Part shown: positions 4,688 through 62,000 of the stretch, one piece after another
Layout: the number at the start of each line of letters is the position of its first letter
How positions within the stretch are numbered: the stretch's first letter is position 1
Origin: an uncultured Lentisphaeria bacterium
GTDB taxonomy: Bacteria > Fidelibacterota > UBA8477 > JABMPR01
Length of the DNA: 64,000 bases
Reading direction: 5' to 3'
Assembly: GCA_964469505.1 (NCBI GenBank)
Contig: CAYXZO010000002.1
Coordinates: 15,923-79,922, forward strand
Made by a program: the position numbers and the translations under genes
The notes under the pieces: generated by a model
Seen by the model: only the letters and a program-made list of their open reading frames with translations
Database searches by the model: none
Told to the model about the DNA's origin: nothing

Positions 4688-4694
4688 GGGGAGA

Positions 4695-7727: not shown

Positions 7728-8829
7728 TTTCCTCCGGCCGGTATGAAAGTCGGATGTGATAACGGCTGTAGAGAGCCACGCCCACTACCATGGTTAGGAT
7801 AAAAGCTAAACCAAGGCTCACCGCCGTCAGGTTATAACGCTCCTCAGCAAAAAGGGGGCCTACACCCGGTGGGGGCGAAGGCACCGCGGCATAGGGGTAG
7901 TTGAACTGCTTAAACAGTCTCTTAATGTTCAGCAAATGGATTACTGGAATTCCCCTGCTTCCCAGACGGTGAATCAATCCGCGTCCAGGTAATTCCTGGA
8001 GATCCCGCACTGTCAGCAATCCCGGTTTTAATAGACGGGCCGGTTGAGCACCTCCCAGAGCGGCAGCCCCCCCACCCACATTTACGTATGCCCGATAATT
8101 TTTAAGCGGGGTAAAAGATTCCAGTAATGCCAATCGCTTACGAATTATTTCATTCAAGGACTTGGCTTCTAAAAGAGGGACCTGGTTGCGCTTTGCCGCT
8201 TGTCTCAACAAACGGCGGCCTTTAGGACTTAGACGGCGGCCAATATCACCCCCACCCCCCAGGGTCGCCGCCCGGCTATGATAATCCACTACTCCACTGT
8301 CACGAAGAACCCGCTCCATATCCAGCCAGGTAAAATTCTCGTCATTAGCTCCCCACTGGGAAGCTCCCAGGGAGGTTACGATAATGGGCACCAGATCCAT
8401 TTCATAAGCCGCGCAATAAACCGCTAGGTTAGCTCCCGGCATGGAGCCGGTTAAAGTGACCACAATCGTGTCTCCAGCTTTTACCCCCGTTCGAAGGAGG
8501 AGATCCACCACCATCGCCGCCATGTTGGGGTCCAGCACGGAGATTTTCGCGTCTAAATCCCCCTGATCAGTGGTAATAAGGCTGTACTGGTGCCCAATTA
8601 GTCCTGTCTCATTGGGATCGTTGACCGGATCTACCATTACCGCCTGCTGCAAATGGTAATTCTTCAGGACCTCCAAAGCCCGGGCCATGCGCTTGACGGC
8701 CCTTATTTTTACTTCATAGCCAGGAGCTTTGCGTTCCACCCGTAAAGCACTAGTTCCATAAAAAACAATGGCGGTAACGATGGCCATGACCACCAGGACC
8801 TCGGTGCGCTGGAGGGCGGGTCTATACAA
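7711..8829 (-). CDS. Poly-γ-glutamate system accessory membrane protein (PgsW-like, TIGR04332-type), found with pgsBC where PgsA/CapA is absent
   Basis: 372-aa ORF lying immediately after pgsC, which it overlaps by 8 nt. It has an N-terminal TM helix (VLVVMAIVTAIVFY) and a C-terminal TM helix (VSLGLAFILTMVVGVALY). It carries none of the metallophosphatase motifs of PgsA/CapA. The family assignment is by size, topology and context only. Confidence 0.4.
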   Translation of the reverse strand: MYRPALQRTEVLVVMAIVTAIVFYGTSALRVERKAPGYEVKIRAVKRMARALEVLKNYHLQQAVMVDPVNDPNETGLIGHQYSLITTDQGDLDAKISVLDPNMAAMVVDLLLRTGVKAGDTIVVTLTGSMPGANLAVYCAAYEMDLVPIIVTSLGASQWGANDENFTWLDMERVLRDSGVVDYHSRAATLGGGGDIGRRLSPKGRRLLRQAAKRNQVPLLEAKSLNEIIRKRLALLESFTPLKNYRAYVNVGGGAAALGGAQPARLLKPGLLTVRDLQELPGRGLIHRLGSRGIPVIHLLNIKRLFKQFNYPYAAVPSPPPGVGPLFAEERYNLTAVSLGLAFILTMVVGVALYSRYHIRLSYRPEEIDGYL

Positions 8830-11292: not shown

Positions 11293-12525
11293 ATGCATAA
11301 CTCCTTTTACGCACAATTTGATGAGGAAACTTACGGTACGCGCCACATCGCACCGGGTGAATACCGTACCCCCTTTGAAATCGATCGCGATCGCGTAATT
11401 CATTCCACCGCCTTTCGCCGGCTTCAGGGGAAAACTCAGGTTTACATCACCGGCCGCGGCGACCAATACCGCACCCGTCTTACCCACTCCATCGAAGTGG
11501 CCCAAATAGGTCGCTCAATGGTGAATTACCTTAACCGAGTACACCTGAAAGGCGGGTTGGAGTTCGCCATTGATGGAGCCCTGGTAGAGGCAGCATGTCT
11601 GGCCCACGATCTGGGTAATCCGCCCATGGGACATAAAGGAGAAGCTCGTCTTAACCAGCTTATGGCCCCCTGGGGAGGGTTTGAGGGTAATGCGCAAAGC
11701 CTACGTATTTTAACCAGGATCATTCGGGGTGAATCACACCGGGGCAAACGGGGTGGGTTGGCACCAACCCGTGCTTTTCTCGATGGGGTTCTAAAATACA
11801 AGGTACTCCGGACAGGTCCCCAGTCAACCCAAACCAAATTTTTATATCCTGACCAGCGGGAAATTCTGGAATGGGTTCACAACGGCCAGGAACTAACGGA
11901 GCGCAGCCTAGAATGTGCCATTATGGATCTGAGTGATGATATAGCCTACTGCACTTCGGATTTGTTCGATGGTTACAAACAAGGGCTGGTAACTCCTACA
12001 ACAGTAGCCGCTTTCTTTGAAAAACAGGGAAGCGCACCTGGGGTGGAATATCTTAGAGAAGCCCTCGAACAAGTCTTTCGCCGGGAAAAATCCTTGGAAA
12101 GAACCGTGGCAGGTTTGGTTGGATTTTTCATCACCTCCTGCTATCTGGAAGAAATTCACAATCCACCCTTGGTCAGTAATCGCTACCGTTACTGCCCTAA
12201 AATGCGGGAAGAAGCACGGGTAGTACTGGAAATGTTACGCAAAATGAATTTCCAGCTGATATATCACTCACCCCTGGTCAGAGAACAAGAACAGGAGGGG
12301 GTTGCGATTCTCGAAGCCGTGTTTAAAGCCTATCAAGAAGTGTACTATGAGCAGCGTCCCTGGCCCTCACTACTACCTCTCCCTCCCTACTTGAAGCAGG
12401 TTTTGGCAACTCCGAAACTGTCGGAACCGGAAGCCATGCGCAGAATTTGCGACCATATCGCCGGGATGACCGACAGTTACGTTCAATACCAATTTGCCGC
12501 TTTCAATCTCAAGCTCACTTCATGA
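11293..12525 (+). CDS. dgt: dGTP triphosphohydrolase-like HD-domain protein
   Basis: HSTAFRRLQGKTQV and RLTHSIEVAQIGRS motifs (HD motif), AHDLGNPPMGH, and the overall Dgt architecture. Confidence 0.85.
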   Translation: MHNSFYAQFDEETYGTRHIAPGEYRTPFEIDRDRVIHSTAFRRLQGKTQVYITGRGDQYRTRLTHSIEVAQIGRSMVNYLNRVHLKGGLEFAIDGALVEAACLAHDLGNPPMGHKGEARLNQLMAPWGGFEGNAQSLRILTRIIRGESHRGKRGGLAPTRAFLDGVLKYKVLRTGPQSTQTKFLYPDQREILEWVHNGQELTERSLECAIMDLSDDIAYCTSDLFDGYKQGLVTPTTVAAFFEKQGSAPGVEYLREALEQVFRREKSLERTVAGLVGFFITSCYLEEIHNPPLVSNRYRYCPKMREEARVVLEMLRKMNFQLIYHSPLVREQEQEGVAILEAVFKAYQEVYYEQRPWPSLLPLPPYLKQVLATPKLSEPEAMRRICDHIAGMTDSYVQYQFAAFNLKLTS

Positions 12526-15440
12526 CCGTTACCATCTCAAGAATCGCTAAAACTCCATTTACCAAGCTTTTCCAGAGCACTGCCATTCTTTGCGCAACAT
12601 TGCTAGGAACCTTGCCTACCTTCGGCAAAGAATTGCCGCTCAGGATTTACGATCCGGAAAAATATCTGGTTCAATCGCAGGTCAAATGCCTGTTGGAAAC
12701 CAGCAATCACCAGATCTGGGTCGGGACGCTGGGGGGAATCAACATTTTCACCGGAGGAAGCAACTACCAATTGACCACCAAAGATGGCCTGCCCAGTGGC
12801 TGGATAAACGCCCTACTTGAGTATCCCGACGGGGTGGTTTGGATCGGCACCAAAGGCGGACTGGCGAAGGTCACTGTTGACCAGCCCCAAGCGGTGCTGC
12901 TCATTCGAGGTAGCACTGCTCTGGAAATCCGCTCGCTGGGAGTATTTCAGGGAAAAGTTCTGGCGGGTACTTTTCAGAAGGGCATCTTTCAGGCAGAACA
13001 AGATAGTCTAGTTCCCTGGTCCCAAGCCGGTAACCTTTCTGGTTATCCTGTCTATGACCTCTGTTCAAATAAAGACACTTTATGGCTGGCTACCTACCAG
13101 GGGATTATTGAATATCATGATACAACGATCACGCGTTTGCTTCCTCAACAGATAGTTCTTTCCCTGGAATATTGGCGTAAAGCTATCTGGGCTGGCACCA
13201 CCGACGGCTTGTTCCGGATAGTCAGCGATAAGGCCCAAAAAGTGAAAGGGGAGATGATTATCCCCGACATGACCTCTGGTTCTGATAAACTGCTGATTAG
13301 CTCTTATTTCAGCGGCTTGCTGACGTTGGAAAATGGTCAATGGCATAACTACGACTCCCATAACGGCCTCCCGGAAACTTTTTATAAAGCCGTATTGATA
13401 GATCACCAGGGAAGCATATGGTTGGGAACCGATGGTATCGGTTTGATCCAGATTCTACCCTACCCCATCGTTAATTATGGGCCTACCTCAGGTTTAAGCA
13501 ACTCAATGGTAAACTACATCTCATTTACCCCGGAAAACTGGGTAGTGGTGAGTACTGATGAAGGCGTTTACATCAGCCATGACAAAGTTGATTTCAAACT
13601 CTTAGAGGAATCTTCTGGTTCCCGGGTATGGGCTTGCGTTCCTTACTATGGCGGCAGATTCCTGATGGGCACCGACGAAGGCACCTTCATCCTGTCAAAG
13701 TCCGGTAAAAAGGAACGAAAGATCTGGCCTTTCGCACTACTTGACGCCCTGACAGATGGTGATACCGTATGGGCCGCTACAGAACGAGGTCCCTGGATGG
13801 AAGTCAATGGAAAATGGCAACCAGTTTCTGGCGTTCCAGTTATTACCGGTGTCTATTGCCACGCCTTAACTCGGGGGCTGCGGGGCATCTGGTTTGCTAC
13901 CGCTGATGGTTTGTTGCTGATTCAGGGGAACGAAATCACCAGATGGAGGGACTCCACCAACCAAGCCCGCAACATGGTTTGGGATGTGGTGGCCGATGGG
14001 CAGGGCTACCTGTGGGTTGGAACCGACGGCGGCCTCATGAGAATAAGAGAGGACCTGCAGGGAGCCAGCTGGTTTACGGAAGCTGGCTCCGGATTTCCCT
14101 CGGATATTATCTATTCGCTGGTGTTGATCGGTCCCCGCGATTTATGGTGTGGGTCAGCCAAAGGGCTTTTACACCTGACCAAATTCCACTGGGAATTGTT
14201 TGATTTCAATGACGGACTACCGCAGAATGAATTCAACAGTAACGCTTTGGCTTATCACGACTCAAAACTATGGGCGGGTGGCATAAAAGGTCTCACCTGT
14301 ATTTCCAACCTGGCTGCGCTCAATCACCCGATTCCCCGCTGTTACCCCACCCGTTTTTATGAGAACGAAGAATCGGTGAGAACCTGGGCCTCCGAATATC
14401 CGTCCGATCCGCCTACTTTAAAAGTGGACCTGGGAACCGACGATTTCCTATGTCCCCGCCCGGTTTTCCGCTGGCGACTAAACCCGCAGGAATCCCAATG
14501 GATAGAACTTAAGAATGCTCACCAACTACAACTCTCAGCTCTCTCTCCCGGCCATTACCAGCCCCAGGTTCAGGCTGGAGATGGTCGTCGCTGGGGACCT
14601 ATCACTAATTTACCAGCTTTTGCCGTAGCACCGCCCTTGTGGCAACGTGGCTGGTTCCAAACCTTATTAGCCTTAATAGTAGCACTTTTGACCCTAGAAA
14701 TCTCCGCAGCCCTAACAGAAAACAGGCGACGACAAGAATTATTACGTCGGCAAAGTGAGCAGATTCAATTAGCCCGAATCTTTAATCAAGGCCTACTTCC
14801 CCTTGAAGAGAAATCTATCCCCGGGTTAAAAGTCTCCGTCGTAACTCATCCGCGGGAAGAATTCAGTGGCGATTTTTATGTACTGTTAAACCTCGGGAAT
14901 GACCGCTTTGCCCTTGTATTGGGGGACGTTGCCGGCCATGGGCTTGAGACGAGTTACCTCAATACCTTTGTAAAAATTGACCTGCAAGAAGTAAGGGACA
15001 AACGACATTCCTTGGATGAATGGTTGTCCCACTTGAATCGCAAATTATATCTGGTGCAAAAGCAGGGGCTAAACATCGCCCTGACCATTTTGGAGTATGA
15101 AACTTATACCAAGAAAAGTCGCATCTTTCTGGCTGGTAACCCAGCCCCCTGGTTATTGAACGCAAATGAAGAATTACAAACGCTGGATATTTCGGGCCAC
15201 CCTCCCCTGGGAGTTTTCCCGGAATTGCAACCCCATTGGACCCCTTTGCCGGAAGGGTGGCAAGCACTGCTCCTATTTACTGATGGATTTGAATTTCATC
15301 CATACGGCTCAGCTTTGTCCCAGCACATCCAGCATTTGCAGGCAGGAAATCTTGAAAAGCTGATAGCTCTAGAATCCACCACGGTCAATCCATCAGAACG
15401 GGACGACTGGACGGTAGTGCTCCTTTGCCATCTCAGCTAA
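12522..15440 (+). CDS. Membrane regulator with a periplasmic two-component-regulator-propeller/Y_Y_Y domain, one TM helix, and a cytoplasmic SpoIIE/PP2C-type phosphatase domain
   Basis: Repeated WxGTxxGL propeller blades. A TM helix WFQTLLALIVALLTLEISAAL is followed by a PP2C/SpoIIE signature (GDFYVLLNLGNDRFALVLGDVAGHGLETS). The start is ATG at 12522, in an ATGA overlap with the dgt stop. Confidence 0.8.
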   Translation: MTVTISRIAKTPFTKLFQSTAILCATLLGTLPTFGKELPLRIYDPEKYLVQSQVKCLLETSNHQIWVGTLGGINIFTGGSNYQLTTKDGLPSGWINALLEYPDGVVWIGTKGGLAKVTVDQPQAVLLIRGSTALEIRSLGVFQGKVLAGTFQKGIFQAEQDSLVPWSQAGNLSGYPVYDLCSNKDTLWLATYQGIIEYHDTTITRLLPQQIVLSLEYWRKAIWAGTTDGLFRIVSDKAQKVKGEMIIPDMTSGSDKLLISSYFSGLLTLENGQWHNYDSHNGLPETFYKAVLIDHQGSIWLGTDGIGLIQILPYPIVNYGPTSGLSNSMVNYISFTPENWVVVSTDEGVYISHDKVDFKLLEESSGSRVWACVPYYGGRFLMGTDEGTFILSKSGKKERKIWPFALLDALTDGDTVWAATERGPWMEVNGKWQPVSGVPVITGVYCHALTRGLRGIWFATADGLLLIQGNEITRWRDSTNQARNMVWDVVADGQGYLWVGTDGGLMRIREDLQGASWFTEAGSGFPSDIIYSLVLIGPRDLWCGSAKGLLHLTKFHWELFDFNDGLPQNEFNSNALAYHDSKLWAGGIKGLTCISNLAALNHPIPRCYPTRFYENEESVRTWASEYPSDPPTLKVDLGTDDFLCPRPVFRWRLNPQESQWIELKNAHQLQLSALSPGHYQPQVQAGDGRRWGPITNLPAFAVAPPLWQRGWFQTLLALIVALLTLEISAALTENRRRQELLRRQSEQIQLARIFNQGLLPLEEKSIPGLKVSVVTHPREEFSGDFYVLLNLGNDRFALVLGDVAGHGLETSYLNTFVKIDLQEVRDKRHSLDEWLSHLNRKLYLVQKQGLNIALTILEYETYTKKSRIFLAGNPAPWLLNANEELQTLDISGHPPLGVFPELQPHWTPLPEGWQALLLFTDGFEFHPYGSALSQHIQHLQAGNLEKLIALESTTVNPSERDDWTVVLLCHLS

Positions 15441-18400: not shown

Positions 18401-19474
18401 TTACCTTAAGCTTAAACCAATTCCCGCAGTATAAGCGGTACTGGTGGGCGATTTAGTAACCCCCACGCTGATGTAGGTAAGGGGAACAATGCGAAACCAG
18501 ACCCCGGCCCCCATATCCGTGCCGCTGGGTCCATCAAGGGATAATTTAACGGGCACTTCAACATCGCCCCGTTGATAAGTATAGTCCAGATCGAAGCTGC
18601 TGGTTTCAAAACCGGCGTTGGCATAAACTCCGAAGGCAATTACCAGCAAGTTAATGGACTTACCAACCTGCACACCATAGCTGGTGCTCTTCGCCGTGAG
18701 CACATCTCCAATACCGATTTTTTGGTAATTGCCGTAGAGGTTGATCGTGAAAGGAAACATGGGAATTGGGATGTACTGATCCAGGCTCATCCGGACTCCT
18801 AACCCCAAAAGGTCCACCTTACCCAGTTTATCTCCGATCTTGGGCAGATTCAATTTCGGCAAGAAACGAGCCGTCACTTCCATGCCTCCGGGGAGACCTA
18901 CTGAAACCTGGGGCACTCCAAACGGGACGCTGGCTAACCCCAAGCCCTTCAGCGTGAAATCGGGGATTTCCGCTGCCGCGTTGGCAATGGCGGCCCGAAA
19001 ATTCTCCCCTGGAAGCCCGCGGGCATTGAGACTGTCTACCAGCACGTCGGTGATATGAGAGGGATTGGCAGCCATGGTCCTGCTTTCATCACTGGCAATG
19101 GTGGGCATTTCCGTATTAGATCCATAGTAAATGTCACTGTAGGACAACATGATGGTATCATTGGTGCCCGTGATGGGGTTCAGGGCGAAGGCCATCTGCT
19201 GGTCTCCCAAATTGAAATTGAAAGTTTTAACCGAATCCGGAATCATGACCAGGGATAGCTTTACGCCCACATCAAATCCCAGGAAGTGGTGCAAATTGCC
19301 TCGATGGAACCAGTTGGTATTCAGATTAGTACCTAAAGCGTCGCCAACGGGCTGGACATAACTTGTAGCATTATCCTTCAACAGACGCCTAAGGCTTTCT
19401 TTTAAATCTTGCCCATAGCTCACACTAAGGCCTAATGCTAAGAATACAATTAGACCTTTCCTGATTTTTAACAT
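18401..19474 (-). CDS. Secreted/outer-membrane hypothetical protein
   Basis: Signal peptide MLKIRKGLIVFLALGLSVSYGQ; Gly/β-strand rich. The true ATG is at 19474, preceded by AGGAGG (the ORF track started it at the GTG inside the RBS). A strong terminator lies downstream. Confidence 0.55.
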   Translation of the reverse strand: MLKIRKGLIVFLALGLSVSYGQDLKESLRRLLKDNATSYVQPVGDALGTNLNTNWFHRGNLHHFLGFDVGVKLSLVMIPDSVKTFNFNLGDQQMAFALNPITGTNDTIMLSYSDIYYGSNTEMPTIASDESRTMAANPSHITDVLVDSLNARGLPGENFRAAIANAAAEIPDFTLKGLGLASVPFGVPQVSVGLPGGMEVTARFLPKLNLPKIGDKLGKVDLLGLGVRMSLDQYIPIPMFPFTINLYGNYQKIGIGDVLTAKSTSYGVQVGKSINLLVIAFGVYANAGFETSSFDLDYTYQRGDVEVPVKLSLDGPSGTDMGAGVWFRIVPLTYISVGVTKSPTSTAYTAGIGLSLR

Positions 19475-19698
19475 GCTAATCACCTCCTATTGGATTTACG
19501 CTGTTTGCTCGGCGCATATTAATCTTAGCTTACAATTCGCCATTCCCAATGGCCAGTAAAAAAGGTTAATCCAAGTGAGCAAATGATATATACCACATTT
19601 GGCTTATTTTAGATCGTCTGAAACCTTGAAATGCTCCGGCATTGAAAAACGGTTCAAGAAAAAATCAGCAGAGTCGGATGCTTTGACTTAGTAGGAGG

Positions 19699-39639: not shown

Positions 39640-41304
39640 ATGAAGATCAGACTAATCATTCTACTCTTATGCTTAGGAATCGTCCAGGCTTTGGGCGGGG
39701 AAGGCAAGTACACTCGTAAATCCATAACCTTCATCAACACTGTGTACCTGGCCGGTCCACAAGCTCGCAAACTGACTCCAGAACAGACCGAATACTTACT
39801 CCAGACCATCAAGCAACGTTTGAGTTTACCACGCTTCGACGAGAATCCATTACCACCGGACAGTAAATTGATGTACGACTTCATCCAGCAGGCCAACAAC
39901 CGAGATTCCCTCGCACTAGATGATATTGCCGAGCTACTGAATACGACCTTCGTACCCAAAATTGCTGCCATTATAGACGAATATGCTGAGAAACGCGCTT
40001 CCGAATTAGTCGATGAGACTTCCAGGGCTGCTTTCATTGCAACCAAGGCCAAGGAGTTGGGCATAACGGCTGAGAATCTGGAGCAGATCTACAATTCGGC
40101 TTATATCTACTTACCGTACCTCAACGGCGTCAAACGCTACATATCCTACAATAGTAGTAATGAAAAAAAGTCTACCGTCAACTATTCACTGGAAGGCGGG
40201 ATTATATGGTTCAAAATCGACTTCGAAAACAATCGCACCAGAGTCAGATCAATCATAAAATCTAAAACAACCAGTATGGGTATGGCCCTGACGGAAAAAC
40301 ACTTTCTGAGTGAGGGGCAATATGTGGGTGCCGAGACTTTTGCCTACCGTAGTGCTGTTCGAAATTTTGCTCGTAATCTGGAAATAATTACCCGTTCATA
40401 TCCCGCCTTTACCCTCTCCATACCCATCGCTGAAGTAGAGGGTGCCACAGTACGCTTCTCGCTGGGAAGCAAAGAAGGATTGCATGTGGATGATAAATTC
40501 ATCGTCGGCGAGCTAATGGAGGACGACACCGGGGGAGTCACCTTCGAATCACAAGGTTTCATTCGAGTTACTCAGGTGGCAAATAACAAAACTGACCGTG
40601 AAGCCCTTTCAGTAGGACAAGGTGTCATTGTACAAGATTGGGCGCCCGGTATGCTCCTTAACGAACACCCACGTTTGCCGTTAGAACTCTACTTTATAGC
40701 GGGCTCATTCCCCTACCGATTGACCCAACCTGACTACGCTTCAAACATTCCTGTAACTAACTTATCCTCATCGGTGGAGCTAGGAATAGGTGTATCTTAT
40801 GATCTAGGACGTTGGTTAAGCATTCCTCAATTATTGACATTGCTTGAATTCCAGGTTGGTTCCGCTTCTGCCACTATCGAAAACTGGTACGCCAGCGATA
40901 CGCGGGACACGTTCATTTTCGGGTTCGGTGTGGGCCTGAGCAAACGCACGCAATTCCGCCGATTTGCAGCCGTTGGGCAGGTCTTGCTGGGGGGACGCTC
41001 AATTACCATCAATGATGTTCCGGCTATCAGTGACAGTGATACTCTCAACATAATAGCATCCGCTTTCGTACTGGGGCTTGGTCTTGATTATGCCCTGGAT
41101 ATTGACTGGACTGTCGGCCTTCATTACCGCCTGACATTTGGATCCAACGATGTGTGGACTGTCACAAATTCAGAAGGCTCAGCAGACTATGACGGGCCCG
41201 AATTGAAAATTAGTGGGGGGGCCTGGCTTTTGGAAATAAGCTGGAATCCACCTACCCTTGGTATCGACCCCCTAGATGCAATTCGAGGATTAGCTGGAAT
41301 CTAA
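39640..41304 (+). CDS. Secreted hypothetical protein; the C-terminal half may be a β-barrel
   Basis: Signal peptide MKIRLIILLLCLGIVQALG. The C-terminal 250 aa are Gly/aromatic-rich with alternating hydrophobic strands (GIGVSYDLG, FIFGFGVGLS, LGLGLDYALD). Confidence 0.55.
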   Translation: MKIRLIILLLCLGIVQALGGEGKYTRKSITFINTVYLAGPQARKLTPEQTEYLLQTIKQRLSLPRFDENPLPPDSKLMYDFIQQANNRDSLALDDIAELLNTTFVPKIAAIIDEYAEKRASELVDETSRAAFIATKAKELGITAENLEQIYNSAYIYLPYLNGVKRYISYNSSNEKKSTVNYSLEGGIIWFKIDFENNRTRVRSIIKSKTTSMGMALTEKHFLSEGQYVGAETFAYRSAVRNFARNLEIITRSYPAFTLSIPIAEVEGATVRFSLGSKEGLHVDDKFIVGELMEDDTGGVTFESQGFIRVTQVANNKTDREALSVGQGVIVQDWAPGMLLNEHPRLPLELYFIAGSFPYRLTQPDYASNIPVTNLSSSVELGIGVSYDLGRWLSIPQLLTLLEFQVGSASATIENWYASDTRDTFIFGFGVGLSKRTQFRRFAAVGQVLLGGRSITINDVPAISDSDTLNIIASAFVLGLGLDYALDIDWTVGLHYRLTFGSNDVWTVTNSEGSADYDGPELKISGGAWLLEISWNPPTLGIDPLDAIRGLAGI

Positions 41305-41362
41305 ACTCTCTTCTCGTAGAATAATGAAGTATTCAACAAATAAAAATAGAGGATGTGATGAT

Positions 41363-42658
41363 ATGAAATCGTGGCAAATAAAGCGTTCCTTTCTGGTGGC
41401 CGTTTTAGCCTTGCAATGCATGGGCTTCGGCCAAGGTACCAATCAACCCCGCTCCCGGGAGGCAGTCTTAGTAGAAAGCACCGGACCGGCAGAAGTACTG
41501 GTGTTAGCTACTGGTATCGGGACCGCTAAGCCCAACTGGCTTGGTAGAGTGGACCAAAAGAAACTCACGGCTTCCGCTGAGCTAGATGCTCGCCGGGCCG
41601 CCGTTTGGTTTGTTCTCCTCGGCGGCAGCGACCCCATGCTCACCACCTCTCAAGAGAAAGAAGCTTTCGAAAAGATCGCTGAAGAGTTTTTCCGGGCCGA
41701 TAATATCCAACGCTATATCGCCTGGGAGGCCTCAGATTTCGAACAACGTCGCAAAATTGAAGGCGGTAAAAAGCTGCGGATCAAAAAAGCTTTTAAGATC
41801 AACAAGCGCATCATTCGGGAAGACCTGGTAAAACAGGGTGTGCTCAAGGCCCGAGAGGAAATAACCGATACCCTGGGTTTGCCTTTTTTGATGGTCATAC
41901 CCGAGGCTCCTAAAGGTAAGGCCCCCTTGGACCTCCTCAGCACGGATCCTAATCTGAAAAAAGCGGCGGAAGTTATTGAAAGCTACCTTACAGCTCGCCG
42001 GTATGATGTGGTAGTTCCCGAACAGGGAGCGGAGTTAGAAGAACTAACCTTAGCCGTGCAGGAACTGAAAGGCGAACCGGAAGACCCAGCGTATTTGCTG
42101 GCCTTAAGCATAGGTGCAGACATCTATTTGACTTACAATGTCCAAATATCCAGCCGCCGGATTGGTTCACGCACAGTTAAAAAAGCGGTGGTGGGGGTTC
42201 GGGCCTTCGAATCAACCACTGCCCGTTTATTGGGTACTGAGACGGGCTACTCCGTAGAACGGCCAACCATGGATGCCGTGGTCATCGAAGAAGCCGTAAA
42301 CGACGCCGTGGATAAAGTTTTAGCGCGCATCAATGCTTATTGGAAGGACGATCTACAGCAGGGTATCCGCTACAAACTAGTTATCCAAATATCCCAGGAA
42401 TTCGATCAAGACGAAGCGGAAGATATCATCTTTCAGCTGGAAGACCTACTGGGGGAAATTTCCAATAAAACTAAAGAAATAGCCCTCACGGATTATACCC
42501 TGGATATACTGGCCTGGTGTGCACCAGAAAAATATTCAAAGGCCACTTCCTTATACCGTGACTTGAAACGAGCGGTAAGACGGAAAATATCTGGGGTGCG
42601 TTTGGTACGCACCAGTTTGAATAAAAAACTATTATTACTCAAAATGACTCCGGCTTGA
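41363..42658 (+). CDS. Secreted hypothetical protein with LPP20/CsgG-like segments
   Basis: Signal peptide MKSWQIKRSFLVAVLALQCMGFG. The ATG at 41363 is preferred over the 41324 start. The segment VLVLATGIGTAKPN...ELDARRAAV resembles the LPP20 lipoprotein core. Confidence 0.5.
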   Translation: MKSWQIKRSFLVAVLALQCMGFGQGTNQPRSREAVLVESTGPAEVLVLATGIGTAKPNWLGRVDQKKLTASAELDARRAAVWFVLLGGSDPMLTTSQEKEAFEKIAEEFFRADNIQRYIAWEASDFEQRRKIEGGKKLRIKKAFKINKRIIREDLVKQGVLKAREEITDTLGLPFLMVIPEAPKGKAPLDLLSTDPNLKKAAEVIESYLTARRYDVVVPEQGAELEELTLAVQELKGEPEDPAYLLALSIGADIYLTYNVQISSRRIGSRTVKKAVVGVRAFESTTARLLGTETGYSVERPTMDAVVIEEAVNDAVDKVLARINAYWKDDLQQGIRYKLVIQISQEFDQDEAEDIIFQLEDLLGEISNKTKEIALTDYTLDILAWCAPEKYSKATSLYRDLKRAVRRKISGVRLVRTSLNKKLLLLKMTPA

Positions 42659-42668
42659 GGGTAGAAAG

Positions 42669-44048
42669 ATGAAACTCCGCTATTGGTTACCATATCTCTT
42701 ACTAGCGGGAGTGGTGGTCAGCTCCTGTGGTTCGGCGCCGGCGCCGAAAAGTGGTCAAAAGGCTCAGTGGTACCTTACGGGCAAACATCCCTCATATCCC
42801 ACTACGCTTTACTGGCTGGGAGTTGGGAGCGGTAGCAGCCTCTCTGCTGCCAAGGAAGACGCCATCGCTGACCTGGCCCGCCAGCTTAAGGTCAACATCA
42901 AAAGCGTCTCGCAACAAATGGTTCAGAGTTTCACCGTCGACGATCGGGAGTATTTCCGGGATGAACTCACCAAACGGACCCAGGCTCTGGTGGATCAAAC
43001 CATTGAAGGAGTGGAAGTGGCCGAGACGGAACATAAGGGTGATGAATTTTACGTGCTGGTGGTTTTGAATAAAAACCGTTATCTGAATAATCTCCGCAAT
43101 AAACTGGATGTCCAATACGACCACATTTCCAAACTTATGGAGCAAACCTCCCAGCTATTGAGTCAGGGACGACTAGTACCAGCAGTTAACAATCTGTTGG
43201 AAGCAGCAGAGCAGATTCCCGATCTATCTGCTCAACTGGCTTTTTACAATGCTCTATCTCCTATGCCTTACCTGGTTGAAGAGCAATATTCCGGCCCAGC
43301 CATCGTAGCCAAAGCCCGGGAACTCCTGGCCCAACTGCATTTGCGCGTGGAGGAAGGTGATCGACAAACGGCAGCTCCGGGTGCTATTCTGCCCAAACCT
43401 GTCGTCATTCAAGCCTATCTGGAACAAAAAGGCCGCGTCCTTCCCGTAGCCCAGTTGCCTCTAAAGGCTACCTATGAAAACGGAAAAACAGCTGGGAAAG
43501 CCGTCACAGGCGACGATGGTCGAGCCGTGTTTCATTTTACCGCAGTTCCCGGAATTGCAATCACCCGAGGTCAAATTCGCATTCGATTGAATCTCCTTCG
43601 CCTACCGGAAATTTTCGCTTCAACGGTGGAAAATCTGGAGCAGATCATAACCTACGAATTACAGAGACCTTCCCAGCCCCTGGCGGTGGAAGTCAAGGAT
43701 GCCGATGGCCTAGCTTTACCCAAACTCATGGTAGCAGTTAAAAGAGCTCTGACCAATGCCGGTTACACCGTAGCGCCTAATGCTCGATACCGCTTAACGG
43801 GTCAGGTGCGACTACAGGAACCGCGTCAACTGACCCTGGGGGGTCGCAAACGATATCAAGTGCAAGCTGTTATGGAATTACAGCTGGTGGGACCAGACGG
43901 AAGCCAATTAGGGTCGTTGGAAATTCGCCAGTCCGGCGTGGCCGGCGAGGTGGCTAAAGCCAAAGCAAAAGCCCTGGACAGTTTGGGACACTCCATCCCC
44001 AAGCGGAGATTAGTGCGCATGCTGGATGCGGGGCTTGGTTCTCCTTAG
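42669..44048 (+). CDS. Lipoprotein with an N-terminal LPP20-like domain and a long extension
   Basis: Lipobox VVSSC. LYWLGVGSGSSLSAAKEDAIADLARQLKVNIKSVS matches the LPP20 family core (xxxGxGxxxxxAkxxAxxxLaxqixvxvxs). Confidence 0.55.
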   Translation: MKLRYWLPYLLLAGVVVSSCGSAPAPKSGQKAQWYLTGKHPSYPTTLYWLGVGSGSSLSAAKEDAIADLARQLKVNIKSVSQQMVQSFTVDDREYFRDELTKRTQALVDQTIEGVEVAETEHKGDEFYVLVVLNKNRYLNNLRNKLDVQYDHISKLMEQTSQLLSQGRLVPAVNNLLEAAEQIPDLSAQLAFYNALSPMPYLVEEQYSGPAIVAKARELLAQLHLRVEEGDRQTAAPGAILPKPVVIQAYLEQKGRVLPVAQLPLKATYENGKTAGKAVTGDDGRAVFHFTAVPGIAITRGQIRIRLNLLRLPEIFASTVENLEQIITYELQRPSQPLAVEVKDADGLALPKLMVAVKRALTNAGYTVAPNARYRLTGQVRLQEPRQLTLGGRKRYQVQAVMELQLVGPDGSQLGSLEIRQSGVAGEVAKAKAKALDSLGHSIPKRRLVRMLDAGLGSP

Positions 44049-44148
44049 CCAGCGCTTCCAAGATGATCTTTTCAGGTCAGAGTGAGCTTATATCCGAAGC
44101 ACTTAAAATACCCCTGGCTCACCTAACTTTTTCCTGATTACAAACTGG

Positions 44149-45903
44149 ATGACTTGCTATACTTGCCGCGTGAACGGGAAGCTAATTACCGGCCAGATTA
44201 AATGTATTCTCCCTGGGGTACTTATACTCCTTCTTGTCTACTGTAGCAAACCCGAACCGTATGCGCCGGTGGCGGCTAAAGTGGGAGATCGTACCATTAC
44301 CACCATTGCCTTCCAGCGGGCCTATCTACCGGTCATCATGTATTCGGACAAATTCGACAGCCCCCAAACCAGGCGCGAGGTCCTTAACACTCTCATAGGC
44401 GATAAAATATTGGCACAGGAAGCGGAGCGTTGCCGTTTGGACACCTTCCGTGCGGTGCAGCGGCTTAAACGCCTGGCAGAGCAGAAAGCCCTGGCCCGGA
44501 AACTGTACCAGGAGTGGGTGGCTGATCAGGTGGGCCCAGTAACCGAAAAGGAACTACGGGAGGCATTCAGGCGGAGCAATGTCAAATTGCGGGTGCGTCA
44601 TCTCTTCGCCCGCACCAAACATGAAGCCGATTCCCTATTTCAATTATTGACTACAGGTCAGGCTACTTTCCAGGAATTGGCCCGTAATGTGTTCCGGGAT
44701 TCGGTATTGCGCTACAACGGCGGCGAATTGGGCTGGATCAGCTTCGGTGATCTGGATGAAACGCTGGAAGATACCTTGTATCACCTACCCCCCGGCCGAA
44801 TTTCTCATCCCACTAAAAGCATATATGGCTGGCACATTCTCCAGGTTGATGATGCCCAGAGACAGTTGATCGTCACCGAAGACGCTTTTCAGCAGGCCCG
44901 TAAGAACCTGCGTTATCGTATCCTGGAAAGGCGGGAATACGCGTTGGGGCGCAAGATAATCAACGATTTTATGAAGGCGCAACGGATACAATTCAACCGT
45001 CCTCTGGCCCGAAAAGTCTGGGCTGCCGTGCTCCAGCGTTTGCCGCGCCGCAAACAACCACTGAAACTTGGCTCACCGGAACTTACTCCCGGTGCTCTCA
45101 CCGACCTGCGTCAGGAACTACAGCCCCACTTGCGGGACACCCTGGTTACATTCAAGGACGGTGCTTGGACCGTAGCCCATTTCCTGAATCATCTGCCGGA
45201 AATGAAACCGCGCTGGTTATACCGTAATCTTTACGTGGGAACAGCCTATTTGATACGCGATGCAGCTTTAGCAAAGGAAGGCTACCGCCTGGGTTATGAT
45301 ACTGATCCGGCCGTTAAAGAAGAAGTTCAGGATCGCCTGGATCATTTTCTGGCACAACTTTACGTGGCTGCAGTGGCTGATACCCTCCGGTTCAACGAGG
45401 AGCTGGCCCGTCAGTATTATGAACGCGAAAAGTTCAAACGTTACCGGGGGCCGGACAGTTTGCGAATTGAAAGAATCTTTTTCAGCGACAGTGCCCAGGC
45501 CGTTCGGTTCTGTAACCTGGTCCGGCTGGGGCGCAAACCAGAAACCGAGGGCTTGAAACCTATAAAAGTAGAGGTTACGCCGTGGTTGGTGACTCCCAGC
45601 GGAAATGACTCTCTGGATTACCAGCGTGCCTTGCGCTCTAAAATAGACGTTCCTCTGGGGCCCTATAATTCTCCCACCGGTTGGAAAGTGATTTTTCTCC
45701 GTGTGAGAAAGCGTTGGAGTCGGCCTTTCGCCGAGGTTCGATCTAAAGTTTTTCAAGCCATGGAGCAGAATCGCCACCCTGTAGTACGGGGGATTTTGCT
45801 TGAGCGCTTGCGTCCCAAGTACCATCCGGAGATTACTATGGAAAATGTTAACGCCCTTTTCGCACCGGATTCGAATATAACAGAATTGCAAGGAGCCCAG
45901 TGA
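44149..45903 (+). CDS. SurA/PpiD-like periplasmic chaperone with a parvulin-type PPIase domain
   Basis: Parvulin domain VRHLFARTKHEADSLFQLL...GGELGWISFGDLDETLED...GWHILQVDD with flanking SurA-like chaperone regions. Signal or lipobox-like N-terminus. The start is uncertain. Confidence 0.7.
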   Translation: MTCYTCRVNGKLITGQIKCILPGVLILLLVYCSKPEPYAPVAAKVGDRTITTIAFQRAYLPVIMYSDKFDSPQTRREVLNTLIGDKILAQEAERCRLDTFRAVQRLKRLAEQKALARKLYQEWVADQVGPVTEKELREAFRRSNVKLRVRHLFARTKHEADSLFQLLTTGQATFQELARNVFRDSVLRYNGGELGWISFGDLDETLEDTLYHLPPGRISHPTKSIYGWHILQVDDAQRQLIVTEDAFQQARKNLRYRILERREYALGRKIINDFMKAQRIQFNRPLARKVWAAVLQRLPRRKQPLKLGSPELTPGALTDLRQELQPHLRDTLVTFKDGAWTVAHFLNHLPEMKPRWLYRNLYVGTAYLIRDAALAKEGYRLGYDTDPAVKEEVQDRLDHFLAQLYVAAVADTLRFNEELARQYYEREKFKRYRGPDSLRIERIFFSDSAQAVRFCNLVRLGRKPETEGLKPIKVEVTPWLVTPSGNDSLDYQRALRSKIDVPLGPYNSPTGWKVIFLRVRKRWSRPFAEVRSKVFQAMEQNRHPVVRGILLERLRPKYHPEITMENVNALFAPDSNITELQGAQ

Positions 45904-45904
45904 A

Positions 45905-47005
45905 ATGGCTTTAAGTTGTGGTATCGTTGGATTGCCGAACGTGGGAAAATCCACCCTGTTTAACGCATTGACTGCTGCTGAAATTCCTGCAGAAAATTAT
46001 CCGTTCTGCACCATTGAGCCCAACGTGGGGGTGGTCCCGGTCCCAGATGAACGGTTGGAGCGTTTAGCCGAAATCTACCACCCGGAGAAAGTGACCCCTG
46101 CCACGGTGCGTTTCGTGGATATTGCCGGTCTGGTGCGGGGGGCTAACAAGGGGGAAGGCTTGGGGAATCAGTTTTTAGCTCAAATCCGAGAAGTAACCCT
46201 AATTATTGAAACTGTCCGCTGTTTTGAGGACAAGAATGTAGCCCATGTGGAAGGTACGGTGAATCCCCGGCGGGATATGGAAACCATTACCGCCGAACTG
46301 GTTATTAAAGACCTCGACTCGGTGCAGAAACAGTTGGCTCCCTTGCAGAAACGTTATCGGTCCGGAGATCGCCAATTGGCCCGCAAAGTGGCCTTGTTGG
46401 AAAAGTTGATTCCGCACCTGGAAGAATTAAAACCAGCTCGAACCCTGCCGTTGCCTCCGGAGGAGCACGCTTTACTTAAAGAATTTTTCCTGCTCTCGGC
46501 TAAACCCATTCTCTATGTGGCCAATGTAGATGAAGAGGAAATTCAATCACCCGAACGAGGACCATTAGCTCGGGAAGTTTTCGAGTATGCCGCGGAAACA
46601 GGCGACGAGGCCTTGCGTTTATGTGCCCGTCTGGAAGCGGAAATGGCTCTACTACCGCGCGAAGAGCAGCTTGAGTTTTGCAAAGAATACAATTTGCCGG
46701 AACCCGGCCTTGATAAGCTGATTCACCGAGCTTACCATCTGCTGGGCTTACAATCATTCTATACAGGAGGGCCAAAGGAAGTTCGAGCCTGGTCTATCCG
46801 CCGGGGGACCACAGCCTGGGAAGCTGCCGGTGAGATCCACACCGATTTCCAGCGCGGCTTCATCAAAGCCGAGATTTACAAATACGATGACCTAATACGT
46901 TATGGAAGCGAAAAAGCTCTCCGAGAAAAAGGACTGGTTGCTCTGGAAGGGCGCGATTACGTTTTGCAGGAGGATGATGTGGTCTATTTTCATTTCAACG
47001 TGTAA
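45905..47005 (+). CDS. ychF: Ribosome-binding ATPase YchF (Obg family)
   Basis: G1 GIVGLPNVGKSTLFNALT, G3 DIAGLV, and the characteristic C-terminal TGS domain. Confidence 0.95.
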   Translation: MALSCGIVGLPNVGKSTLFNALTAAEIPAENYPFCTIEPNVGVVPVPDERLERLAEIYHPEKVTPATVRFVDIAGLVRGANKGEGLGNQFLAQIREVTLIIETVRCFEDKNVAHVEGTVNPRRDMETITAELVIKDLDSVQKQLAPLQKRYRSGDRQLARKVALLEKLIPHLEELKPARTLPLPPEEHALLKEFFLLSAKPILYVANVDEEEIQSPERGPLAREVFEYAAETGDEALRLCARLEAEMALLPREEQLEFCKEYNLPEPGLDKLIHRAYHLLGLQSFYTGGPKEVRAWSIRRGTTAWEAAGEIHTDFQRGFIKAEIYKYDDLIRYGSEKALREKGLVALEGRDYVLQEDDVVYFHFNV

Positions 47006-47036
47006 TCGGGAAAAATCAACGCTTCCACAAGCCCCC

Positions 47037-47402
47037 ATGATCTCCATTTTGAAGAAAAAAGGTATGGCGGTGGCAGCTCTAATGGGCATACCATTATTAG
47101 CAATCCTAGTTTTTAATAGCTGCTCGGAACCTGAACTTTACCAAGGACTTTACATCCAGGGTTTTGAAAAAACCTCTTTCAGAATGTGCGGAAGTGACGA
47201 GAGTTGGTGGGTGATTCCCGACAATGAGTTGGCTAATGCTTACCAAAGTTTGGGTGTAGCACCCTATACTGAAGTTTATGTCGAATTAAAAGGTGAGCGC
47301 AGTAACAAGGGTAGTTATGGTCATTTAGGGGCCTACCCCTATCAGCTTACAGTAAGGGAATTGGTCAAAATAGATACAATAGCTCCCTTCCCCTGTCGCT
47401 GA
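47037..47402 (+). CDS. Small lipoprotein, hypothetical
   Basis: The ATG at 47037 follows the ychF stop. Lipobox LVFNSC. The longer ORF from 46902 would overlap ychF. Confidence 0.5.
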   Translation: MISILKKKGMAVAALMGIPLLAILVFNSCSEPELYQGLYIQGFEKTSFRMCGSDESWWVIPDNELANAYQSLGVAPYTEVYVELKGERSNKGSYGHLGAYPYQLTVRELVKIDTIAPFPCR

Positions 47403-59648: not shown

Positions 59649-62000
59649 CTATCGGTGCAATCTGAAGCGGTATCTCTTTTTTGCAATATGACCTTGTTGA
59701 TCTACCACCTTTAGGTCAACAATATGCACTCCCGATTTGCTTTCCCAGGGCAAATGATAGGTCAGTTCCTGCCGAAGAGGGTTCCAATTGGGGAATACTA
59801 TTTGTCCGTCCCAGCGCATAATTATGTTCTGTTCAGGTCTAGCGATGGGACCAGCATTATCTCTGATCCGCCACACCACCCTTTGACCGGGCCGATAGAC
59901 TCGTCGTTTGGTTAACAAGCGTATCCTGGGGGGATTATCATCGGCTATTAGGAAATAGCGCCCTGGCTTGTTAACCTCAACAGTGATGTAGCCAGCTTCC
60001 TTAATACTGCCAGGTAACAATCGTAGCCCGTGAGCTTGCCGGTAAATACCCCAATGGCGCTCTTCCTGTCCGGTTGGTATCCGAAAAGCCATTTGGGCCG
60101 TAAAATTCACTCCCTCCTCCAGGGTAAACAATCCCAACCCACTAAAATGAAGGTCATTATAGGAAGCCAGAGCGGTATCCACTTGCAAATGGAAGGAATC
60201 AGATGTCGCTTCAACTCTAAAAGACACGTTGAAACCGCTGACCACGTCCGAATAGCTATCTCCAGGGCCCAGTTTTAACCATGGTCGTTGTGGGAAATGG
60301 AGTTCCTGCCTAGGCCCAAAATGCAATACCGCATCTTTTACGGCTCCCCTTATGTCTCCGCTTACCGGCTCCGTTTGGCTTTGGGTGGGTGTCACCCGTA
60401 TAAGGGGGATAAAAAGATTTTTATAGGGTAACACAAACTGAATTTTAATGGGAAAGGGTACTGGAGCCAGGGATTCTAACTTTAATACCCATCCTCTAGG
60501 ACTTTTCTCCCAATCTGCCTCAAGGTCTGGAAGATTCACCGGCTGGGGAAAGTACAAACCCACCAGGGGTAAACTTTTTAATGGAGCCACAGTTAGCCCT
60601 TGTCTCAGTTCTTCCAGCAAGAACTCCCAGCGGGCATTACTTAGATCGTAAAGGACTTGATGAGGTTTTACGGGATTATGGCGCAGATCGTAAAAAATAG
60701 GACTCGTACCAAGGGAGCTGGAAATGAACCAGACTCGATTGTCTTGAGCTTCTATTTTCCAAACTGGCCAAGTTGTTAAGGTTGTTAAATAAAACGTGAG
60801 ATCGGCGGTATTACCATGGAAGTCTTTAAACTCAGCTCGCAAGCGGTGCAACCCCGGAGATAACTGTAAACGTCCATCCAATCCATCGTGTATAAAGGGC
60901 AAACCAGGAGAATTCTCCGGCAAATACAGGTTCAGTACTGGTTTGCGTTCATCCGCAAGTCCTACTTCGTAAACAACTTCAACCTGATGAGCATAACTGA
61001 GAGGTTCCCGATTAAAGGTAAGCGCAAAAGCCAAGGAATCATCGACAGTCAGACGCAAGTTATATATGGAATACCAATTACTGGTTCCATCTGCTCTATC
61101 AAAGGTGGCCACTGCCAATCCCACTGGACCGGATACATAGGGGATAAAAGCAGAACGATACTTGGCGCCTCTTTTTATCAACGGTAACCGCAACGGCAAC
61201 CAACCTCCATTAAGACGCGAATTATCATCCAAAGGGATGAGGTACAGCCCTTTTATTTCCGGTGGTTTTCGGTCTTGAATTCCGTGGAAGAACTGCAAAG
61301 GATTGAGCACAGCGCCGGTGGAGTCCCGAATTTCGAAATGTAAATGGGGATAGCGAGTGCCGGAAGTTCCCGAATAGGCTAAAACGGCATTCTTTTTCAC
61401 CGGAAAGCGCTCCGGCGGGAAGGTGAGTTCCACCGCGTAGCGCCCGGTTTTTTGTTGTTCCTGAATTATCAGCCGTTCTATTGCCCAGGTAAATCGGTCC
61501 AGATGGGCGTATACGGCTGTCCGACCATCATTCAGCTTGAGATACAACACCTTACCGTAGCCGGTGTACCCCACCCTCACCCGCTGTATATAGCCATTGG
61601 CCACCGCTTGGCAGGGAATATCCAAAGCACCCCAGGTTTTAATATCCACACCGCTGTGAAAATGGCCCACGCGGGGTTCACCAAAAGTGGCGGACAGGAA
61701 ACGATCGGTTCGAATAGGCCAACTATACGTGGAGGAATGGGCTAGTAAGGAACGAAATCCAGTCCCAACCAGGAAGAAGAATATTAAGGCGAGCCATCGG
61801 CTGCCATTGGGAAAAGCAGATGGTAGAGTTAAGTTTGGGACGCAATGTTTATAAAAACTAAAAACCGCTCCTTGCCTGATGGGCCCCTGAAGTTTGGCGC
61901 TCAATTGAAGCAAGTTCATCGTTTGGTGATCTTTTTCCCGCTGGCTACGAAACAAGCCCGCGTGGCTCGCTATGCTCTCCAACGTTTGAAAAACCACCAA
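59649..62000 (-). CDS. Large M23-family (LytM-type) metallopeptidase-domain protein
   Basis: HxxxD (GHFHSGVD) and HLH (YPHLHFEI) M23 zinc motifs near the N-terminus, followed by a long β-rich C-terminal extension. The start is ambiguous (M1 at 62000 or M28 at 61919); a signal-anchor-like helix lies at aa 68-88. Confidence 0.7.
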   Translation of the reverse strand: MVVFQTLESIASHAGLFRSQREKDHQTMNLLQLSAKLQGPIRQGAVFSFYKHCVPNLTLPSAFPNGSRWLALIFFFLVGTGFRSLLAHSSTYSWPIRTDRFLSATFGEPRVGHFHSGVDIKTWGALDIPCQAVANGYIQRVRVGYTGYGKVLYLKLNDGRTAVYAHLDRFTWAIERLIIQEQQKTGRYAVELTFPPERFPVKKNAVLAYSGTSGTRYPHLHFEIRDSTGAVLNPLQFFHGIQDRKPPEIKGLYLIPLDDNSRLNGGWLPLRLPLIKRGAKYRSAFIPYVSGPVGLAVATFDRADGTSNWYSIYNLRLTVDDSLAFALTFNREPLSYAHQVEVVYEVGLADERKPVLNLYLPENSPGLPFIHDGLDGRLQLSPGLHRLRAEFKDFHGNTADLTFYLTTLTTWPVWKIEAQDNRVWFISSSLGTSPIFYDLRHNPVKPHQVLYDLSNARWEFLLEELRQGLTVAPLKSLPLVGLYFPQPVNLPDLEADWEKSPRGWVLKLESLAPVPFPIKIQFVLPYKNLFIPLIRVTPTQSQTEPVSGDIRGAVKDAVLHFGPRQELHFPQRPWLKLGPGDSYSDVVSGFNVSFRVEATSDSFHLQVDTALASYNDLHFSGLGLFTLEEGVNFTAQMAFRIPTGQEERHWGIYRQAHGLRLLPGSIKEAGYITVEVNKPGRYFLIADDNPPRIRLLTKRRVYRPGQRVVWRIRDNAGPIARPEQNIIMRWDGQIVFPNWNPLRQELTYHLPWESKSGVHIVDLKVVDQQGHIAKKRYRFRLHR

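Follow-up and report, generated by a model that had tools for sequence, protein, structure and literature searches.

A conserved cassette of exported proteins that unites FlgT-like and LPP20-family modules outside flagellar loci

This study concerns a 64-kb window of DNA (the whole stretch analysed, 64,000 nucleotides of contig CAYXZO010000002.1 from an uncultured Lentisphaeria bacterium), in which four consecutive plus-strand open reading frames (ORFs), here named P1, P2, P3 and P4, occupy positions 39640-45903. P1, P2 and P3 constitute a conserved three-gene operon encoding exported proteins. What is new is the combination: a module of predicted FlgT-like fold fused to a barrel, a second FlgT-like protein belonging to the Pfam family DUF6175, and an enlarged LPP20 protein, all encoded together outside flagellar loci. 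The individual folds are of known kinds, and P2 and P3 fall into existing Pfam families; the cassette itself is undescribed in the searchable literature, where we found no mention of DUF6175 and no account of non-flagellar FlgT-like or FlgP-like systems.

The question on which the cassette bears is the origin of the flagellar outer-membrane-associated rings, the H-ring and the basal disk. FlgT of Vibrio cholerae, a protein of three domains (N, M and C), encircles the LP-rings as a 26-mer, and the lipoproteins FlgP and FlgO of the same organism form 58-mer rings that tether the H-ring to the outer membrane (bioRxiv 10.64898/2025.12.02.691832). Campylobacter FlgP builds the concentric rings of the basal disk. 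An SHS2-like fold is common to FlgP, Lpp20 and FlgT; FlgP comes from the broad LPP20 family, of which a subset forms rings, and ring formation goes together with an insert that separates the SHS2 helix from the second strand (PMC12222027). Helicobacter homologs of FlgP switch between lipoprotein and ordinary signal peptides (PMC11756786). The cassette is a candidate non-flagellar system joining FlgT-like and FlgP-like proteins and, at the same time, provides a first structural and contextual handle on DUF6175.

Layout and conservation of the cassette

The four ORFs are arranged as follows (window coordinates throughout):

39640-41304, plus strand: P1, ORF of 554 amino acids (aa)
41363-42658, plus strand: P2, ORF of 431 aa; an alternative start at 41324 gives 444 aa
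42669-44048, plus strand: P3, ORF of 459 aa
44149-45903, plus strand: P4, ORF of 584 aa

Intergenic gaps measure 20 or 59 nt between P1 and P2, 10 nt between P2 and P3, and 100 nt between P3 and P4; public gene calls mostly favour the 431-aa form of P2. All four are considered real genes because conserved homologs exist for each. A sequence-only reading of the window had described three consecutive plus-strand genes of 554, 431 and 459 aa with a peptidyl-prolyl isomerase (PPIase) 100 bp further on, each of the three bearing a signal peptide or lipobox, and the ORFs lie exactly so. Export signals, assigned by eye and by regular expression, are ordinary signal peptides for P1 and P2 and a lipobox (VSS-C20) for P3. 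Lipobox-like motifs are rare in the first two families, occurring in 1 of 62 P1 members and 7 of 81 P2 members.

Linkage was counted by building hidden Markov models for the three families and scanning all ORFs in the fetched loci. P2 has P1 as its immediate upstream neighbour in 60 of the 67 loci with room for it and an LPP20-family P3 as its immediate downstream neighbour in 64 of 71; it is flanked by both in 48 of 62. The cassette genes share a strand and are separated by approximately -3 to +30 nt in most loci. The context of P1 and P2 homologs is always the same, namely a protein of ~540-640 aa, a DUF6175 protein and an LPP20 protein, tightly spaced and set between unrelated flanks. Unbiased clustering of all neighbours, the trio and LPP20 paralogs aside, returned no other family conserved in more than 21 loci. 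Thus the sequence-only suggestion of a functionally unassigned envelope cassette holds, its linkage across taxa having been examined and found conserved.

Relatives of P2 were detected in 222 genomes across phyla of the Fibrobacteres-Chlorobi-Bacteroidetes (FCB) group, in a scan that took one genome per species. Neomarinimicrobiota supply the majority, the other carriers being Latescibacterota, Kryptonia, Calditrichota, Zixibacteria, LCP-89, Cloacimonadota, Fidelibacterota and Ignavibacteria. Besides at least 222 species genomes of mostly uncultured phyla, a cultured species of Fusobacteriota, Haliovirga abyssi, has the trio, which makes the cassette open to experimental testing. Papers on Haliovirga and Kryptonia contained no usable statement on motility.

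Several lineages elaborate on the basic arrangement. A small LPP20 gene (~184 aa) follows P3 at position +2 in 41 loci, and a third LPP20 paralog (~250 aa, position +3) follows the small one in 34. The larger extensions are given below, where L numbers designate loci and coordinates are those of the first locus named:

L006 9639-15239 (also L037, L047, L048, L059), Kryptonia extension: small LPP20 protein, 319-aa LPP20 protein, CsgG-family protein (297-301 aa), LPP20+DUF4384 protein (~654 aa) and a fusion of Peptidase_C14 (caspase) with an outer-membrane barrel
L045 24-6121 (also L056, L066, L073, L049), Calditrichota/LCP-89 block upstream of P1: protein with a type IX secretion system (T9SS) tail, UPF0164-like protein, 255-aa unknown protein, 163-aa SLBB-domain protein and 380-aa FlgT_N-positive protein
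L089 5021-8940, Haliovirga abyssi AP027059.1, upstream of the trio on the same strand: 193-aa LPP20 protein, SLT lytic transglycosylase, two small ORFs and a 433-aa weak-LPP20 protein

A defence-system reading was considered and rejected: despite the caspase and DUF4384 neighbours in the Kryptonia loci, PADLOC gave no match for any of P1-P4.

The Calditrichota and LCP-89 loci have no P3 downstream of P2 and carry instead the 380-aa protein directly upstream of P1. This protein passes the Pfam FlgT_N model (30.4 bits against a cut-off of 28.8), and its N-terminal domain matches the 171-aa PDB chain 9hmf_C, annotated 'Lipoprotein, putative', with an E of 1.3e-5; this chain is presumably Campylobacter jejuni FlgP. 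The match of the 380-aa protein to Vibrio FlgP is weak (E 0.16). In all variants examined, at least one protein of the SHS2/LPP20 type is encoded alongside P1 and P2.

Transposase genes occur further upstream of the cassette in Haliovirga abyssi, hinting that it was acquired there by transfer. Two further observations concern the upstream flank. A family of large LTD/CARDB proteins is encoded divergently upstream of P1 in 21 loci, and in locus L007 (1-883) a DUF6588 family member stands just upstream of the cassette, beside an LTD/CARDB protein of 1386 aa.

Predicted folds and domains of the three proteins

P1 divides into two regions, both recognized in its structural model:

39709..40674, plus strand: P1 periplasmic region, residues ~24-345, predicted FlgT-like fold, no Pfam family
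40675..41301, plus strand: P1 barrel, residues ~346-554, predicted 8-stranded OmpW/OmpA-like beta-barrel, read as a membrane anchor

Homologs of P1 are scarce, with 22 found among 5.8 billion proteins, none of them named and the most distant belonging to Haliovirga abyssi. An AlphaFold2 model built from the family alignment reached a predicted local distance difference test score (pLDDT) of 82.9 and a predicted template modelling score (pTM) of 0.79. Foldseek searches with the P1 and P2 models were run against 350,542 PDB chains, and the best matches of P1 were to FlgT, 8z5n chain 0 (E 6.9e-10) and 3w1e (E 2e-9), over 342-348 columns of FlgT chains that are 352-356 residues long. No Pfam family matches the first ~345 residues in any of 21 family members, and the conserved motifs YxRKSIT, RFDxNP, TKAKELG, NSAYIYLP and GGIIWF lie in this region. 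The C-terminal half had earlier been described as barrel-like; this was borne out by the model, in which DSSP assigns eight long strands between residues 348 and 535. After FlgT, the Foldseek matches are OmpW, OprG, OmpA, Ail and NspA (target-normalised template modelling (TM) scores of 0.56-0.68), and the predicted structure has the fold of a small 8-stranded outer-membrane barrel. Describing P1 simply as a barrel was correct as far as the barrel goes and missed the larger N-terminal part, the FlgT-like module. Pfam OMP_b-brl is matched by 8 of the 21 family members (best E 4.9e-8); the window protein itself scores 20.2 bits, below the cut-off of 28.7. When P1 and P2 were compared with the sequences in the PDB by phmmer and by profile, nothing relevant emerged, the sole match being a weak one of the P1 barrel to BamG (E 0.0055). 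The N-terminal region and barrel together represent a new family whose FlgT-like region has no Pfam model. At the extreme C-terminus (41230-41301) the last barrel strand is followed throughout the family by a shared PPxLPFDP motif and a short helix, and not by a canonical aromatic C-terminal beta-signal.

P2 is the most strongly conserved member of the cassette, with more than 538 homologs at 48-59% identity; when 1.84 billion representatives were scanned exhaustively, its relatives amounted to 379 clusters at the 50% identity level. Pfam DUF6175 (PF19672) is matched at residues 174-355 with 37.8 bits against a 23-bit cut-off, and by 45 of 46 family members; a shorter form of ~320 aa, which lacks domain 1 of P2, also exists. 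The AlphaFold2 model from the family alignment (pLDDT 87.1, pTM 0.68) contains three domains:

41459..41833, plus strand: P2 domain 1, residues 33-157; in the model a beta-hairpin, a long helix, an insertion and three strands
41885..42361, plus strand: P2 domain 2, residues 175-333; an alpha/beta domain in the model
42182-42253, plus strand: hairpin within domain 2, residues 274-297 (K274-S297), K...RAFESTTARLLGTETGYS, nearly invariant across phyla
42365..42652, plus strand: P2 domain 3, residues 335-430; beta-alpha-beta-beta-alpha-beta-beta in the model, pLDDT ~90

The best Foldseek matches of P2 are again FlgT, 3w1e (E 1.7e-9) followed by 8z5n_0 (E 6.5e-9). CsgG (E 4e-6), CT253, PelC, HpaA, GNA1162 and LptE come next, with the CsgG, PelC and GNA1162 chains spanning E values of 4e-6 to 1e-4. 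These proteins represent a class of outer-membrane-associated alpha/beta lipoproteins, several of which form rings. Domain 2 probably belongs to this CsgG/PelC/GNA1162/LptE class; the matches were made with the whole P2 model, and it is the secondary structure of the model that places them in this domain. Domain 1 is plausibly an SHS2/FlgT_N-like module, given the whole-protein match to FlgT and the published SHS2 link, and its model shows an insertion after the long helix.

The sequence-only reading had assigned LPP20-type cores to both P2 and P3 and had counted P2 as an LPP20-fold lipoprotein on the strength of a GxG...A...A motif, which lies in domain 1. For P3 the assignment is correct. 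For P2 it fails by sequence and is plausible only at the level of the fold: the lipobox is missing, Pfam LPP20 matches none of 46 family members, and hhalign of domain 1 against LPP20 gives a probability below 20%. The domain 2 hairpin, RAFESTTARLLGTETGYS, is rich in polar residues (R280, E283, T285, T286, E293, T294 and S297), which is unusual in a purely structural protein. Three database entries with other architectures were noted: P0166 (829 aa), a putative direct fusion of P2 and P3, the one such protein noted; P0158 (762 aa), a putative fusion in which lamin-tail (LTD-like) repeats are joined to P2 domains 2-3; and P0267 (515 aa), in which an unrelated N-terminal region is joined to the same two domains, also a putative fusion.

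P3 belongs to the LPP20 family by sequence, and two features can be located precisely:

42726..42728, plus strand: codon of the P3 lipobox Cys20 (V-S-S-C), from sequence
42780..43067, plus strand: P3 LPP20 domain, residues 38-133, Pfam PF02169, profile positions 4-96 of 97

The PF02169 match has an E of 2.6e-13 (50.7 bits against a cut-off of 25.9) and extends to all 32 family members. PDB entry 4kzs is matched with an E of 3.7e-8 by the protein and 5.8e-11 by the family profile, and the alignment to 4kzs reveals a segment of ~35 residues between the SHS2 helix and the next strand. From N- to C-terminus the protein has four regions, namely the LPP20 domain, a hairpin of helices, an Ig-like domain and an alpha/beta domain. 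Its middle region gives weak matches to bMG3, Big_1 and Invasin_D3, and the C-terminal domain offers a weak lead in the form of an hhalign probability of 46% to the middle of the FlgT_N-positive 380-aa protein. NCBIfam has no match for P1, P2 or P3. The lipobox cysteine and its linker are present in the window and in close relatives with the trio only, and absent from distant trio-only loci, which have longer forms of P3; where P3 has a separate small LPP20 gene behind it (38 loci), its signal peptide is of the ordinary type. The lipid anchor therefore seems to move between LPP20 paralogs from locus to locus.

The relation of P1 and P2 to FlgT is, as far as the models go, one of fold only. FlgT is the best Foldseek match of two independent confident models (E 1e-9 to 1e-10, probability 1.0, 312-348 aligned columns), and the multi-domain FlgT fold is found in both. 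At the level of sequence, neither protein matches the Pfam models FlgT_N, FlgT_M or FlgT_C at E<=1, none of 21 P1 or 46 P2 family members does so at E<=0.1, and the family profiles did not recover 3w1e or 8z5n from the PDB. All-against-all hhalign of the domains gave no P1-P2 pair above a probability of 20%; hence a recent duplication is not the source of the FlgT-like similarity between the two proteins. The resemblance to CsgG and FlgOPT assemblies that the sequence-only reading had sensed, with no match it could name, is now specified: FlgT heads the list for P1 and P2, CsgG and PelC follow for P2, and P3 sits in the FlgP/LPP20 family.

A possible scaffold beneath the outer membrane

Among characterized systems the Vibrio H-ring (FlgT, FlgP and FlgO; 3w1e, 8z5n) is the closest in composition. 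FlgT is the best fold for P1 and P2, P3 is in the LPP20 family of FlgP, and in both systems several SHS2/LPP20-type paralogs are encoded together. The H-ring is tethered at the inner face of the outer membrane, and the cassette may achieve the same through the P1 barrel, together with lipidation either of P3 or of a small LPP20 protein encoded separately. The differences are equally clear. The cassette has neither sequence similarity to FlgT nor a flagellar gene context; P1 has a fused 8-stranded barrel, and P2 has a C-terminal domain other than that of FlgT; P3 is ~3x the size of FlgP, with Ig-like and C-terminal domains; and equivalents of FlgO, MotX and MotY were not identified. The basal disk of Campylobacter and Helicobacter (FlgP, FlgQ; Lpp20/HP1456) shares the LPP20/SHS2 fold family with P3, as well as the variation between lipoprotein and non-lipoprotein signal peptides, and the ~35-residue segment of P3 stands at the position of the FlgP ring insert; P3 differs in being a four-region protein of 459 aa in a non-flagellar context.

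Other comparisons lie outside the flagellum. CsgG is a 9-mer and PelC a 12-mer. The P2 model matches the CsgG/PelC/GNA1162 (DUF799) rings, and a true CsgG-family gene joins the cassette in Kryptonia. In contrast to these rings, P2 lacks a lipobox, Pfam CsgG (PF03783) matches none of P1-P3 and no member of the P1 and P2 families, CsgA, CsgB, CsgE and CsgF are not encoded nearby, and the 64-kb window contains no flagellar, curli or Pel genes. Furthermore, instead of an oligomeric pore, the predicted membrane part of the cassette is an 8-stranded barrel made by a monomer. OmpA, like P1, combines an 8-stranded barrel with a periplasmic domain, but in P1 the order is reversed, the barrel being C-terminal, and the periplasmic part is FlgT-like rather than a peptidoglycan-binding OmpA_C domain. 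Lastly, P2 is a member of DUF6175 (PF19672) and the N-terminal domain of P3 is homologous to 4kzs, a structural genomics entry of the LPP20 family; both of these references are uncharacterised.

Our preferred explanation, in which we place about even confidence, is that the cassette specifies an outer-membrane-anchored periplasmic scaffold, probably ring-like, in which modules of the FlgT-like and FlgP-like kinds serve apart from the flagellum. What we observed directly is how the genes are linked, which domains and export signals their products have and which folds they match; from this we infer the physical association of P1-P3, their independence of the flagellum and their cellular role. 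P1, P2 and P3 would be expressed as one operon and form a complex under the outer membrane, built of modules such as those of the flagellar H-ring and basal disk. The C-terminal 8-stranded barrel of P1 would sit in the outer membrane with the FlgT-like module hanging in the periplasm. P2 would be a soluble periplasmic FlgT-like protein, with a middle domain of the CsgG/PelC/LptE class, that associates with P1, and P3, an LPP20/FlgP-family protein lipid-anchored in this organism, would add a membrane-proximal layer. Since the P1 barrel is not large enough for a secretion channel, such an assembly would serve the envelope as a scaffold or collar and not as a pore.

Several considerations weigh against this proposal. 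P1 and P2 have no sequence or profile relation to FlgT, CsgG or LPP20, and their global TM-scores to FlgT are low, at 0.2-0.3, because domain orientations differ. The ring or disk geometry, which we regard as probable, is drawn purely from analogy with FlgT, FlgP, CsgG and PelC. The very high conservation of P2 and its invariant polar hairpin could reflect ligand binding or catalysis, and not a role that is structural alone. The CsgG and SLBB proteins added in some loci are in keeping with an export function, and rare flagellins have been recorded in a flagellin survey for Kryptonia, Latescibacteria, Calditrichaeota and Fusobacteria.

The first alternative assigns the cassette to the outer-membrane and periplasmic end of a system exporting a polymer (amyloid, polysaccharide or other), with P2 and P3 forming a funnel like PelC, CsgG or Wza and P1 providing the membrane part. 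It draws on the P2 matches to CsgG, PelC, GNA1162 and LptE, all of which gate or feed outer-membrane conduits, and on the CsgG-family gene of the Kryptonia loci and the SLBB-domain protein of the Calditrichota-type loci. These extra genes are limited to sub-lineages and do not occur in the window, however, and an 8-stranded barrel of the OmpW/OmpA type is too narrow for a polymer. The conserved neighbours of the trio include no gene for a substrate, a synthase, an inner-membrane component or an energising protein, and P2 has no lipobox; we judge export unlikely.

A flagellar role would make the cassette a divergent motor accessory, equivalent to the H-ring or basal disk and located around the LP-rings in flagellated bacteria of the FCB group. 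The top fold of P1 and P2, the place of P3 in the FlgP family, the FlgT_N-positive protein encoded within the cassette in some lineages and the rare flagellins mentioned above all speak for it. Yet there are no flagellar genes beside the cassette in the annotated neighbourhoods of ~90 loci, nor in the window; the flagellin survey does not list Marinimicrobia and Cloacimonetes, which are the main carrier phyla; and FlgT lacks the barrel of P1, while P1 and P2 fail every FlgT Pfam model. This explanation appears quite unlikely.

A third possibility, which we consider very unlikely, is that the three proteins act as monomers or small complexes that regulate or adapt cell-wall or outer-membrane biogenesis, in the manner of LpoB, LptE or TolB. 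The P2 matches do lie in the LptE/TolB-N/LpoB-type fold class, the window neighbours are of the housekeeping type (LigA, AccBC, YchF and malate dehydrogenase (MDH), with LptF/G ~10 kb from the cassette), and the Haliovirga gene run contains an SLT lytic transglycosylase. Against this, genes for peptidoglycan synthases, Lpt and Tol are not consistently linked, the best matches cover multiple FlgT domains rather than single-domain regulators, and the multiplication of LPP20 paralogs at positions +2 and +3 is a better fit to a repetitive structural assembly.

If the scaffold explanation is right and the ring is real, the cassette would give lineages that abound in the sea and in sediments, Marinimicrobia among them, a new envelope structure. 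A further step, tentative and on balance doubtful, is to see in a free-standing, non-flagellar ring or disk under the outer membrane, held by a barrel-FlgT-like anchor, either a previously unseen envelope organelle of the FCB group or a surviving relative of a pre-flagellar scaffold whose FlgT and FlgP were later taken into high-torque motors.

The adjacent PPIase and the remainder of the window

The sequence-only reading had joined all four genes into one system, a barrel and two LPP20 lipoproteins served by a dedicated SurA-like foldase, and this is scarcely credible: P4 does share the strand of the trio and begins 100 nt beyond it, the gap holding no convincing terminator, and the arrangement recurs in other samples of this organism, but phmmer found a P4 homolog in 0 of 88 related loci, where different genes follow the cassette, P4 is separated from ychF by 1 nt, and P2 is neither a lipoprotein nor an LPP20 protein by sequence. 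P4 is not a dedicated partner of the cassette, because none of those related loci carries it; only in this organism, its other samples included, does it stand beside the trio. It is more likely coupled to ychF (P4 stop 45903, ychF start 45905) and may be an ordinary periplasmic foldase that became adjacent by chance. The parvulin half of the earlier SurA/PpiD-like label is sound, with clear Rotamase_3 and Rotamase matches (E ~1e-14 to 1e-15, 56.4 bits); for the SurA half there are matches below the cut-off, SurA_N_3 scoring 23.6 bits against 27.2 and SurA_N_2 19.6 against 28.5, and NCBIfam matches lie far under their equivalog cut-offs. A small putative lipoprotein with a weak NlpE_C match (46902-47402) overlaps the end of ychF.

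The gene content of the window is that of a housekeeping region, including EF-G, AccB/AccC, LigA, a TlpA-like redoxin, YchF, malate dehydrogenase, Pst/PhoU, ETF and LptF/G. An Rfam scan of the window detected zero RNA families, promoter and terminator scans around the cassette gave counts not above those of shuffled sequence, and no Bacteroidetes-type -7 motif was found near the cassette.

Other proteins of the window were noted in passing:

212-8829, minus strand: 1491-aa Peptidase_C25 (gingipain-like) protein with NIDO and dockerin domains; after it, an LVIVD-repeat protein (4695-5837), then ORFs at 5786-6886, 6834-7727 and 7711-8829 with no Pfam match
12447-15440, plus strand: 997-aa protein composed of Reg_prop propeller repeats and a SpoIIE phosphatase domain
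18401-19483, minus strand: DUF6588 protein, ~20 kb from the cassette
59649-62000, minus strand: 783-aa protein, sole domain a Peptidase_M23 near the N-terminus

The sequence-only reading had referred to another candidate envelope system in the window, and the Peptidase_C25/LVIVD region at 212-8829 may be the one intended.

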